Part shown: one piece after another, positions 12,001 through 15,000 of the stretch
How positions within the stretch are numbered: position 1 is the first letter of the stretch
Layout of the letters: the number at the start of each line of letters is the position of its first letter
NCBI GenBank assembly: GCA_963732875.1
Contig: CAVTBD010000002.1
Coordinates: 1,442,678 to 1,506,677, forward strand
DNA: 64,000 nucleotides
Direction: 5' to 3'
Origin: an uncultured Alphaproteobacteria bacterium
GTDB taxonomy: Bacteria > Pseudomonadota > Alphaproteobacteria > SMXQ01
Position numbers: made by a program

Positions 12001-15000
12001 TATGCAGCCTCGAAGGCAGGCATCGTACGCCTACTCGAGACTCTGGCAGTGGAATTGGCGCCGATGGGTATCACCGTCAACGGCATCGCTCCCGGCTTCG
12101 TCAAAACGGAAATTCATGACGCCACCCTCTCGGCTGGTCCCGAACGGGCAGGCGACGACTTCCACGCCATGACCGTCGCCAAGCTCAATGAAGGCTATGT
12201 TCCTATGAACGTCCCGGTGGCCTGCGTGCAATGGCTGCTGTCCGACGCCGCCCATGGCCTGACCGGCAAAACCATCAGCGCGAGTTTCGACCCTTGGTCC
12301 GATCCACGATTCCAAGCCGCGATTCACGAACTCAATGACTCAGACCTATACACTATGCGCCGTATCAACCTCAGGAATCTTCCTGGGGATATTGTCGTCG
12401 AGAAACTGACTGGCGACGAAACATCGAAAAATTGAGAATTCGGGTGGTGCTTTAAGCTGGCCAGACGAAGCAAAATTTGGTCCAATACTTTCGATAATAT
12501 CTGCATATCTACGTGTTCACGCTAGCCACTTTTCATCCCCTTGAGTGCACCCCTCCCCATAAGATGACATCCGATGAAAAATGAACCTACCACCAGTTTC
12601 CAGCTCTTTCGCGTGATGCGCCTGATACGGCGAACTGAGGAAATCCTCATGGAGGAGTACCATCCCGCCGACGAGATGCGTTGCCCAATACATTTCTGCG
12701 TTGGACAAGAGGCCACGCCGGCCGCCCTGTCACTGCTGTTTCAATCGGGTGACGTGGTGATGAGCCACCACCGCAGTCATGGTTACTACCTCGCCAAGGG
12801 TGCGCCTGTGGAGGCCATGGTCGCTGAGTTCTACGGCAAGGCCACCGGATCAAACGGCGGCCTCGCCGGGTCCCAGGAGTTGAGCCACGAGGGCTACAAC
12901 TTCTATAGCGGCACCATTCTCTCCGGCATGTTTGCCATGGCCACGGGCGCCGCGTTCTCACAAAGATACAATGGAACCAATGACATAACGGTTGGGGTTA
13001 TCGGCGACGGCGGAATGGAGGAAGGCATCGTATTCGAAGCCCTCAACCTCGCCGCAGTGTTCCGCTTGCCCATCCTGTTTGTCTGCGAAAATAATCTTTA
13101 TTCGGCTCATACGAGGATCGATGTCAGGACCCGTTCGAGGAGCCTAGCCGAGCGGGCAGCAGCCTTCCAGGTGCCCTCCAAGATTCTAGACGGCAACGAC
13201 GCGCCCGGCCTTCTTCAGGAACTGACCGAAATCACTGCGGATATTCGGGCCGGTAACGGCCCCTTCTGCATCGAGGTCAACACCTACCGCACCTGTGGTC
13301 ATGTGGGGCCGGAAAATGACGACGTTCTCGGCTATCGCACCCAGGAAGAGCTGGAAGCTTGGAAACAGCGTGATCCCCTTGCCACGCTTCGCGCAGCTAT
13401 GGTCGACGCTGGCCAGGACGAGGGTGCCCTCACCTCGGTCGAGGAAGAAGTCGACCTACAGGTCAAGGCTGCGATCACGCAAGCAAAGGCCGCGCCGTTT
13501 CCCGGGTATGAAGAAGCGCTGGCTTGCAACTGGTCGAATAAACTGAGCCCCTTGGTCACTCGCATGACACACGGGACGGCCGCCTTTGTCGGTGGTCAGA
13601 ACGAAACGAAGCTCAAGCCTTACTAGCAATCTGCAGAAGGAGAATTGCCGCGGTGCCTATAAGGCGCCCCGGCACGACGAAAATGGCGGGTCAGGACAGT
13701 AAATTAGGCGCCCCAACAGGGAAGGTAAGCCGCAGGAATTTCGGCCAGGCGATCAACGATGCATCGCGCCAGGCCATGGAAATGGACGAAGTCCGTCTTC
13801 CTCTACGGACTCGGCGTTGACAGCAAGGCAGGCATTTTCGGTAGCACCTTGGGTCTTGCGGACATGTTCGGTGCCAAGCGCGTCTTCGATACGCCTGTTT
13901 CCGAACAGGCCCTGACCGCCATGGCCGCGGGTGCCGCCATCAATGGGCTCCGGCCGCTCTTGGTGCACCAGCGCCTAGACTTCATGGTCTACACCATGGA
14001 TCAGATCGTCAACTGGATCAGCCTCTGGCATTTCAAGTCGGCCGGCAGGTCCAAGGTCCCGCTTACCATCCGCGCCATCGTCGGCAAGGGTTGGGGCCAG
14101 GGCCCGCAACACGCGAAAAGCTTGCACACCTGGTTCGCCCATATCCCTGGGCTGCAGGTCGTCATTCCCGGCTCCCCCGCCGATGCCAAGGGCCTGCTGC
14201 TGTCCAGCATCATGAGCGACGATCCGACGATTTTTATCGAAGGGCGTTCTCTTTATTCCATGGAAGAGGACGTGCCCGACGATCCCTATTTCATCGAGCT
14301 TGGGAAAGCCTTGATTCGCCGCATGGGAAAAGATGTCAGTATAGTAACGTTCGGCTCGATGGTGCCTCATAGTCTCGCGGCGGCCGAAACTCTCGCAGCC
14401 CAGGGAATCGATGCCGAAGTCCTCGATTTGCGCTGCCTGATGCCACTGGACAGCGCCGCCGTCGTCAAATCAGCCGCTAAAACGGGCCGTCTCGTCGTCG
14501 TGGAGCCGGGGTGGCTGCATTATGGTGCCGCCGCAGAAATCGTGGCGCAGGTTGCCGAGGCCATCGGCCCCCAATTAAAAGCCGCCCCAAAGCGCGTCAC
14601 TTGGCCGCACAGCCATGTACCGACGAGCAGCCCTCTGGAAGCCCGGTATTATCCGACGAATGATGATATCGTTGCCGCCTGCGTGAGTGTGGCGAAGGCC
14701 TGATACCGGATGGGGCCGAAAGGATGACCGACAGCACCCGCGCCGCGTGGGATAGCGTCATCGCCTTGCTGACGGGCGAAACCTTGAAGCTCGGCCCGGT
14801 TAGCACTGATCGTTATGTACTCGATCCCAAACGCCTGTGCTTTTTCCTGTCGCGGTATAAATTCGCCGCAAAGATGCTACGGGACTGCCAACGAATTGCC
14901 GACATCGGCTGCGGCGACGGCATAGGAACGCTGATACTGCTTTCCGATACGAAGGCGACAATACAGGGCATCGATTTCGACACCGTGCAGATTGAGTACG

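Follow-up and report, generated by a model that had tools for sequence, protein, structure and literature searches.

Here we describe two neighboring genes for the alpha and beta subunits of a thiamine diphosphate (ThDP)-dependent E1 enzyme, embedded in a polysaccharide island of an uncultured alphaproteobacterium. The DNA analyzed, hereafter called the window, is a stretch of 64,000 nucleotides of contig CAVTBD010000002.1 (GenBank assembly GCA_963732875.1), and the pair occupies its positions 12574–14703. Judging from gene content and from analogy with known sugar-branching enzymes, the pair would be a stand-alone, E2-independent ThDP carboligase of the α-KADH2 type that places a pyruvate-derived acetyl branch on a nucleoside diphosphate (NDP)-4-keto-heptose, which would then be tailored further; we give this reading about an even chance. 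From the assembly as written, this enzyme would not be made intact, the E1 beta gene being interrupted by one extra base.

An earlier note, made from the sequence, had described the locus as an E1 alpha/beta pair set between a short-chain dehydrogenase/reductase (SDR) gene and a methyltransferase gene, with no E2 or E3 gene adjacent, and our analysis bears out this description. The pair is flanked by an SDR gene at 11557–12435 and a methyltransferase gene at 14724–15419, and both subunits carry the expected Pfam domains and conserved ThDP and catalytic motifs. The E1 beta gene spans 13653–14703 on the forward strand when both of its reading frames are counted; its body was called as an open reading frame (ORF) of 314 amino acids, from an ATG at 13759 to 14703, with the domains Transket_pyr and Transketolase_C. 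A separate E1_dh gene lies beside it, so that the two-gene E1 architecture is present. In E1 alpha, the ThDP motif GDG...ENN, the HRxHG motif and the histidine of YRxxGH are kept across 83 family and reference sequences. In the frame-joined E1 beta, the cofactor-activating Glu84 and His153 are invariant in an alignment with 14 full-length homologs. The nearest solved structures to the pair are the E1 components of pyruvate dehydrogenase (PDH) and branched-chain keto acid dehydrogenase (BCKDH), with human PDH E1 alpha the closest to E1 alpha (1.1e-40).

The family to which the pair belongs is large, with E1 beta relatives numbering in the thousands and the best 120 at 64–83% identity. A scan with one genome per species gave 80 loci, and neighborhoods were counted over 86 related loci (1.43 Mb). 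Six tblastn queries (E. coli AceF and Lpd and, from plasmids of alphaproteobacteria and Thermus, two E2s and two free lipoyl proteins) were negative for E2, E3 and lipoyl-domain genes, both in the 64-kb window and across these 86 loci, and as positive controls the queries recovered one another in the control loci. By contrast, an E2 or lipoyl gene lies directly downstream in all four of the plasmid-borne E1 pairs taken as catabolic references. The window was also searched for an acyl carrier protein (ACP), a homodimeric AceE-type E1 and a YerE-type enzyme, and none was found. Scores against family models agree in direction: E1 alpha reached 240.3 bits against NCBIfam TIGR03182, under the cut-off of 393.85, and E1 beta reached 256.3 bits against PRK09212 (cut-off 321) and 251.5 against a second PDH E1 beta model (cut-off 454), the E1 beta query lacking its N-terminal 35 residues, which slightly lowered its scores. 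In a tree of 88 E1 betas, the E2-less loci were split from the four E2/lipoyl-linked references, which include an AcoB adjoining AcoC, with a neighbor-joining bootstrap of 93/100, and the window E1 beta did not cluster with these references. Compared with catabolic AcoA/AcoB and PdhA/PdhB, the window pair thus shares the fold, the catalytic residues and 42–46% identity of its beta subunit to the four references, but differs in having no E2, E3 or lipoyl partner, in scoring below the cut-offs, in belonging to a separate clade and in its sugar-nucleotide context.

The link to a keto sugar comes from a gene product that resembles Cj1427 of Campylobacter jejuni, a GDP-heptose C4-dehydrogenase whose product is GDP-4-keto-heptose (PMC10680097). 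Among solved structures, the best match of this protein was Cj1427 (PDB 6VO6/6VO8; E 6e-37, 31–33% identity), the next match having an E-value of 2.5e-26. Its AlphaFold model (pLDDT 77.5, pTM 0.82) had Cj1427 as its top Foldseek match (E 1.6e-21, TM 0.74/0.82). With 6VO6 as the query, a Cj1427-like gene scoring above 120 bits was found in 35 of the 86 loci. It immediately precedes E1 alpha, in the same orientation and with fewer than 400 bp between the two, in 15 distant loci (SAR11, Chloroflexota, Planctomycetes, Omnitrophota and others). By sequence comparison, a Cj1427 homolog is the most constant partner of the E1 pair. The sugar-tailoring role that the earlier note had proposed for the pair is therefore supported, and this dehydrogenase adds a further link, as it would yield a 4-keto acceptor of the kind that AviB-type enzymes probably branch. 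A 4,6-dehydratase was considered as the source of the keto sugar and rejected: both extended SDRs of the island (with SSSCYG and STSSVYG motifs) lack the Asp-Glu / Glu dehydratase residues. Because neither has the 4,6-dehydratase Asp-Glu, the keto sugar would come from the C4-dehydrogenase. The likeness to the pathway of the C. jejuni capsular heptoses lies in this dehydrogenase, the closest by both sequence and fold, and in the genes for heptose-nucleotide supply. However, in C. jejuni the 4-keto intermediate is epimerized and then reduced back, whereas the window has a ThDP E1 pair instead; no cupin-type epimerase or C4-reductase set as in C. jejuni was identified in the window.

Conservation of gene order across distant lineages supports this association. 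Hosts of the E1 family include Alphaproteobacteria, Verrucomicrobia, Acidobacteria, Thermodesulfobacteriota, Chloroflexota, SAR11, Planctomycetes, Omnitrophota and others, and E1 alpha adjoins E1 beta in 77 of the 86 loci. Intact pairs are carried by, for example, Marinibaculum pumilum KCTC 42964 (L030) and Reyranella. Recurrent partners are a homolog of the Cj1427-like SDR of the window (38 loci), an HldE-like protein (33), a methyltransferase (32), the SDR (28), a GFO/IDH/MocA oxidoreductase (GFO; 23), a dehydrogenase of the UDP-glucose dehydrogenase (UGDH) family (22) and a radical S-adenosylmethionine (SAM) enzyme (15). Four close relatives (L001, L002, L005 and L038) repeat the cassette of the window, in the order E1 alpha, E1 beta, methyltransferase, a protein of 390–470 amino acids with no assigned function, radical SAM/SPASM enzyme and NUDIX hydrolase, with the SDR beside it. 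In verrucomicrobial, acidobacterial and deltaproteobacterial loci, the genes form one long operon that runs from an extended SDR through an epimerase-type SDR, HldE-like, GFO and UGDH-type genes and one or two further genes to E1 alpha and E1 beta at its end. The same gene set sits on the opposite strand in the window (26459 to 18689) and reads toward the E1 cassette. The minimal unit, found in Planctomycetes and Omnitrophota, consists of the Cj1427-like gene, E1 alpha, E1 beta, an SDR and a methyltransferase.

The chemistry proposed here has precedents. The α-KADH2 E1 alpha/beta enzymes add a pyruvate-derived two-carbon branch to C3 or C4 of keto sugars, on evidence that consists of feeding and knockout for aldgamycin, genetics for avilamycin, a proposal from combinatorial biosynthesis for the paulomycin E1, and acetyl branching in vitro with ketone sugar analogs for KbDH-α/β; the branch is later reduced, methylated, oxidized or transaminated (PMC12247030, PMC4802897, PMC4753412). 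By architecture and context, these are the closest known systems, namely AviB1/AviB2 (avilamycin), Pau11/Pau12, equivalent to Plm8/Plm9 (paulomycin), KbDH-α/β (kibdelomycin) and the aldgamycin enzyme. They share with the window a two-gene E1 without E2 or E3, NDP-sugar genes that include a maker of a keto sugar, and a nearby reductase and methyltransferase that could modify the branch (PMC12247030, PMC4802897, PMC4753412). There are also clear differences. The actinomycete enzymes serve antibiotics and act on a 4-keto-6-deoxyhexose supplied by a 4,6-dehydratase, whereas the window belongs to a Gram-negative host with Azospirillum-like flanks and a Wzm/Wzt-exported surface polysaccharide, and its presumed acceptor is a 4-keto-heptose from the Cj1427-like dehydrogenase. 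The window cassette further differs in its attached radical SAM/SPASM, IscU-like and NUDIX genes.

A second type of branching enzyme is known from surface glycans of Gram-negatives and mycobacteria. YerE, ErwE and MMAR_2332 are ThDP flavoenzymes of the acetolactate synthase (ALS) type, acting in lipopolysaccharide (LPS) and lipooligosaccharide; as proposed here for the E1 pair, they add an acyl anion, derived from a 2-oxo acid, to the C4 ketone of a nucleotide sugar, and a YerF-like reductase acts afterwards (PMC9306805, PMC12247030). They consist of a single chain (PF02776, PF00205 and PF02775) of unrelated architecture, and the E1 pair was rejected as an enzyme of this type on its domains, which are E1-type and not the single-chain TPP_enzyme_N/M/C. 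No such enzyme is encoded in the window, while both types occur together in eight of the related loci. C-branched sugars of Gram-negative surface glycans have so far been ascribed to YerE-type enzymes, with E1 alpha/beta branching known only from actinomycete antibiotics and from deoxyhexoses (PMC12247030). The bradyrhizose cluster was also considered as a match but found no support; as published, it is centered on a dTDP-glucose 4,6-dehydratase and heptose or E1 genes are unmentioned. In the literature that we searched, no report was found that combines a Gram-negative surface polysaccharide, a heptose acceptor supplied by a Cj1427-like enzyme, radical SAM/SPASM, IscU-like and NUDIX genes, and a very wide spread. 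The enzyme type and its chemistry are known from actinomycete antibiotic pathways.

We propose two-carbon branching because the catalytic residues of the E1 pair are intact and because a putative maker of the 4-keto sugar, a classical SDR and a methyltransferase are present with it, in a tight operon. From this arrangement we infer what the donor and the acceptor are, where the branch is attached and what the tailoring genes do. The transaldolase, GmhA-, GmhB-, HldE- and HddC-like proteins would provide an NDP-glycero-manno-heptose, which the Cj1427-like dehydrogenase would oxidize at C4 to the NDP-4-keto-heptose. The E1 pair would decarboxylate pyruvate to a ThDP-bound hydroxyethyl (acetyl-anion) intermediate and add it to the C4 ketone and not to a lipoyl group; the resulting 4-C-acetyl heptose would be a branched nonose and would carry a tertiary alcohol. 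The SDR might then reduce the acetyl carbonyl to a 1-hydroxyethyl group, and the methyltransferase, radical SAM/SPASM enzyme, IscU-like protein and NUDIX hydrolase might tailor the product further before the polymer is assembled by the glycosyltransferases and exported through Wzm/Wzt.

Several points weigh against this proposal. The main caution is that an ALS/YerE-type ThDP enzyme (TPP_enzyme_N/M/C) shares the cluster with the E1 pair in eight related loci (L022, L023, L042, L055, L062 at 11139–12929, L076, L078 and L084); the two ThDP systems must differ in task there, and the YerE-type enzyme could be the one that branches the sugar. Several alphaproteobacterial loci have no Cj1427-like gene within 10 kb, and in the window this gene lies 9 kb from the E1 pair, on the other strand. 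The E1 beta tree was built by neighbor joining only, with four E2-linked references and with no AviB, Pau or KbDH sequence. Automatic names given by the Joint Genome Institute (JGI) to close homologs include 'acetoin:DCPIP oxidoreductase beta', so that the nearest catabolic relatives are Aco-type and the donor could be acetoin-like. These names are consistent with the published placement of the acetoin:dichlorophenolindophenol (DCPIP) oxidoreductase and the sugar-branching enzymes in one α-KADH2 superfamily (PMC12247030). Finally, E1 beta is frameshifted in this assembly.

The claim that the conserved N-terminus of E1 beta lies in a different frame from the body, with a junction near 13790, proved correct, and the extra base could be placed within 13788–13794. 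The GTG at 13653 opens an ORF of 55 codons and is preceded by an AAGGAG Shine-Dalgarno sequence (13637–13642, 10 nt 5′ of the start); its product (...NFGQAINDASRQAMEMD) is the conserved E1 beta N-terminus, as aligned with the 14 homologs. When one base is dropped, the frames join into a protein of 349 amino acids that is colinear from end to end with the 14 full-length homologs, at 67–82% identity. In a DNA alignment, 6 nt (encoding Pro-Asn or Pro-Lys) separate GAY and GTCTT in four of four intact homologs, as against 7 nt in the window. The extra base belongs to the deposited assembly, because the truncated product of 314 amino acids is on record from the NCBI/ENA contig of 2,495,792 bp. A programmed +1 ribosomal frameshift was ruled out: no homopolymer or slippery motif was seen at the junction (13785–13800), and all 4 DNA-aligned and all 14 protein-aligned homologs are in a single frame. 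A scan of metagenomes for the junction with spacers of 5–8 nt found no second copy.

The frameshift thus reflects either an inactivation that happened very recently or an error of one base in the assembly. If it is a genuine mutation, E1 beta is a pseudogene and the branching step, perhaps with the whole tailoring arm, is inactive, so that the polysaccharide would be unbranched or absent; we place the likelihood of this just short of even. This explanation concerns the state of the gene and is compatible with an ancestral branching function. The extra base stands in the deposited assembly and the gene caller reported the truncated product. Indel errors of long reads usually fall in homopolymer runs, and the site is outside any such run, a context that slightly favors a real change. 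Surface-polysaccharide genes, moreover, are often hit by inactivating mutations. On the other side, both halves of E1 beta are otherwise perfectly conserved, the ribosome-binding site and the start codon are intact, and the other cassette genes match their homologs over their full length; because none of these has decayed, any inactivation would be very recent. A single-base assembly error fits the data equally well.

The other alternatives concern what the enzyme acts on. It is possible, if unlikely, that the substrate is a 2-oxo acid borne by the sugar itself, made by a UGDH-like enzyme that oxidizes C7 of the heptose to a carboxylate and a GFO enzyme that oxidizes C6 to a ketone; the E1 would then decarboxylate the side chain, giving a shortened chain or using the sugar as an acyl-anion donor. 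In 22–23 loci, UGDH-like and GFO genes separate the heptose genes from the E1 pair, and the window has both; decarboxylation of 2-oxo acids is native to E1 enzymes. However, loci from SAR11, Chloroflexota, Planctomycetes and Omnitrophota keep the Cj1427-like gene and the E1 pair without UGDH or GFO and, because many lineages do so, these two genes fall outside the conserved core. In addition, we know of no precedent for an E1 that decarboxylates a sugar-borne 2-oxo acid, which we count against this substrate.

It is also improbable that the two-carbon unit goes to an acceptor other than a sugar, for example in acyl loading for O- or N-acylation of the polysaccharide, much as E1-type enzymes of natural-product pathways supply carrier proteins, or that acetoin, acetolactate, a ketose phosphate or some other compound replaces pyruvate as the donor. 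One E1 pair (L088; Streptomyces griseofuscus plasmid pSGRIFU1, 7977–16149) adjoins a condensation-domain protein, an ACP and a phosphopantetheinyl transferase; it is E2-less and falls inside the E2-less clade of the E1 beta tree, a placement that suggests that the family was recruited for carrier-protein loading too. The ALS-type enzyme of the eight related loci could make an acetoin-type donor, and the JGI names indicate Aco-type similarity. Nevertheless, neither the window nor any of the 86 loci has a gene for an ACP, a lipoyl protein or a condensation-domain protein, and the conserved neighbors are NDP-sugar enzymes. A last alternative is a pyruvate or acetoin dehydrogenase E1 of the ordinary catabolic kind, placed in the island by chance and served by an E2 and E3 encoded elsewhere in the genome. 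The top family-model matches (PDH E1 alpha and beta) and the PDH and BCKDH structures point that way, but every PDH equivalog cut-off is missed, the sugar-nucleotide synteny is kept over at least eight phyla, the 1.43 Mb of related loci are free of E2, E3 and lipoyl genes, all four catabolic references have such a gene immediately downstream and the tree separates them (93/100), so that this explanation is essentially excluded.

Beyond the branching proposed above, one can envisage an extension, although we regard it as a long shot, in which the heptose is turned into a carbocyclic or bicyclic higher-carbon sugar by the joint action of the Cj1427-like dehydrogenase, the E1 pair and the radical SAM enzyme. 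The model is caryose, a 4,8-cyclo-3,9-dideoxy-nonose whose biosynthetic origin has been stated to be currently unknown (PMC9092360). In a caryose-type extension, the E1 pair would install the two-carbon unit at C4 and the radical SAM/SPASM enzyme would join the carbonyl carbon of the branch to C7 of the heptose. Such a ring closure, of which a radical SAM enzyme could be capable, would give exactly the connectivity of caryose, which can be read as heptose C1–C7 with C8–C9 attached at C4 and C7. Caryan, a (1→7)-linked homopolymer of caryose, is the sort of product exported by the ATP-binding cassette (ABC) transporter (Wzm/Wzt) pathway. If true, the extension would offer a first genetic handle on carbocyclic LPS sugars, predicted in SAR11, Verrucomicrobia and many soil lineages.

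The features of the island are listed in the table. The operon around the E1 pair is tightly packed, with gaps of 11–180 bp. Of the 86 loci, 28 have a homolog of the SDR no more than 10 kb from the E1 pair, and in the alphaproteobacterial loci this homolog immediately precedes E1 alpha. Of all the cassette proteins, the radical SAM/SPASM enzyme shows the highest conservation (identities of 95% to L001, 83% to L002 and L038, and 61–65% to SAR11 and Verrucomicrobia loci); its best family match, a model for a tungsten-cofactor maturase, is weak (86 bits against a cut-off of 380), and PDB sequence searches with it and with the NUDIX protein gave no informative match. For the protein of 469 amino acids, no Pfam or NCBIfam match was found. 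Foldseek matched it to IscU/SufU with probabilities of 0.99–1.0 and weak E-values (5e-3), and an IscU/SufU/NifU-N-like domain lies at about residues 240–360 of its model. Its residues D268, H272, C295 and H309 and a C-terminal RD....RRL are invariant, and its gene is always placed between the methyltransferase and radical SAM genes. This protein might be an Fe-S scaffold or a partner of the radical SAM enzyme. The 3′ ends of the NUDIX and UGDH-like genes, on opposite strands, overlap by about 99 bp as called (18689–18787). The annotated NUDIX end may be an over-extension, because its ORF of 204 amino acids is 30–55 longer than those of its homologs (147–174). In one related locus (L005), a sulfotransferase and an adenosine phosphosulfate (APS) kinase lie beside the cassette.

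Coordinates of the features discussed, as positions in the window
Feature	Position	Strand	Basis or occurrence
Wzm (−) / Wzt (+) polysaccharide ABC exporter pair	6990–8695	mixed	PF01061, PF00005
Classical SDR, putative acetyl-branch ketoreductase (YerF-like role)	11557–12435	+	PF00106 5.7e-41
E1 alpha, ThDP-binding, intact, 350 aa	12574–13626	+	PF00676 E1_dh 4.9e-58
E1 beta, N-terminal 45 codons, original frame	13653–13787	+	GTG start, conserved N-terminus
Frameshift site, 7 nt GAAGTCC, net +1	13788–13794	+	6 nt in four intact homologs
E1 beta body, +1 frame	13795–14703	+	PF02779 1.5e-26, PF02780 2.4e-33
SAM-dependent methyltransferase	14724–15419	+	PF13489, PF13649; homolog in 32/86 loci
Conserved 469-aa protein, IscU/NifU-like domain	15431–16840	+	Foldseek; in L001, L002, L007, L038
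Radical SAM/SPASM enzyme	17021–18136	+	PF04055, PF13186; present in 15 loci
NUDIX hydrolase	18173–18787	+	PF00293 2.9e-13; same position in L001, L002, L005
NDP-sugar dehydrogenase (UGDH family)	18689–19999	−	TIGR03026 200.9 bits, above 189.8 cut-off; 22 loci
GFO/IDH/MocA oxidoreductase	19978–20904	−	profile matches; 23 loci
HldE-like heptose kinase/nucleotidyltransferase	20917–22470	−	TIGR02198 and TIGR02199; 33 loci
Extended SDR, epimerase type	22463–23482	−	SSSCYG / YxxxK, no dehydratase Asp-Glu pair
Cj1427-like NDP-heptose C4-dehydrogenase, proposed to supply the 4-keto acceptor	23479–24522	−	PDB sequence and fold match
Transaldolase, GmhB-like phosphatase, SIS (GmhA-like): heptose precursor supply	24540–26459	−	TIGR02134, PRK08942, SIS_2
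HddC-like heptose-1-P guanylyltransferase fused to GmhB-type phosphatase	28192–29424	+	profile match

By sequence, the transaldolase (332 bits against TIGR02134), the GmhB-like phosphatase, the SIS protein, whose match to SIS_2 is weak, and the HddC-GmhB fusion amount, together with the HldE-like protein, to a heptose-nucleotide pathway. The domain order of the HldE-like protein is reversed relative to E. coli HldE, with the nucleotidyltransferase N-terminal and the PfkB kinase C-terminal, and this is also seen in 33 related loci. The HddC-like-GmhB fusion suggests that the island can provide activated heptose in two forms, the ADP/β type and the GDP/α type. Besides Wzm/Wzt, it encodes two GT2 glycosyltransferases. 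Two proteins of 294 and 636 amino acids, the latter with tetratricopeptide (TPR) repeats, are encoded between Wzt and the SDR (8702–11493, forward strand) and have at most one family assignment; they may be polymerizing transferases, and a homolog of the 636-residue protein lies upstream of the SDR, E1 alpha and E1 beta genes in L012. The island (about 7000–29500) has 50–60% G+C, as against 62–75% in its flanks, a difference that would fit acquisition by horizontal transfer. To the right, the flank is similar to secondary replicons of Azospirillum, with a nucleotide identity of about 74%, and its part from about 51600 to 53000 gave a megablast match, again at about 74% nucleotide identity, to cysD/cysN-type sulfate adenylyltransferase genes of Streptomyces plasmids.

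From a biological perspective, a conserved link between an E2-less E1 and a heptose C4-dehydrogenase extends over many phyla, including very abundant uncultured groups. This link predicts an unrecognized class of branched, heptose-derived envelope sugars with at least nine carbons. In the strain studied here, a disruption of a single base would decide whether the branched sugar is made, which bears on serotype and on recognition by phages or hosts, as well as on the quality of the assembly.

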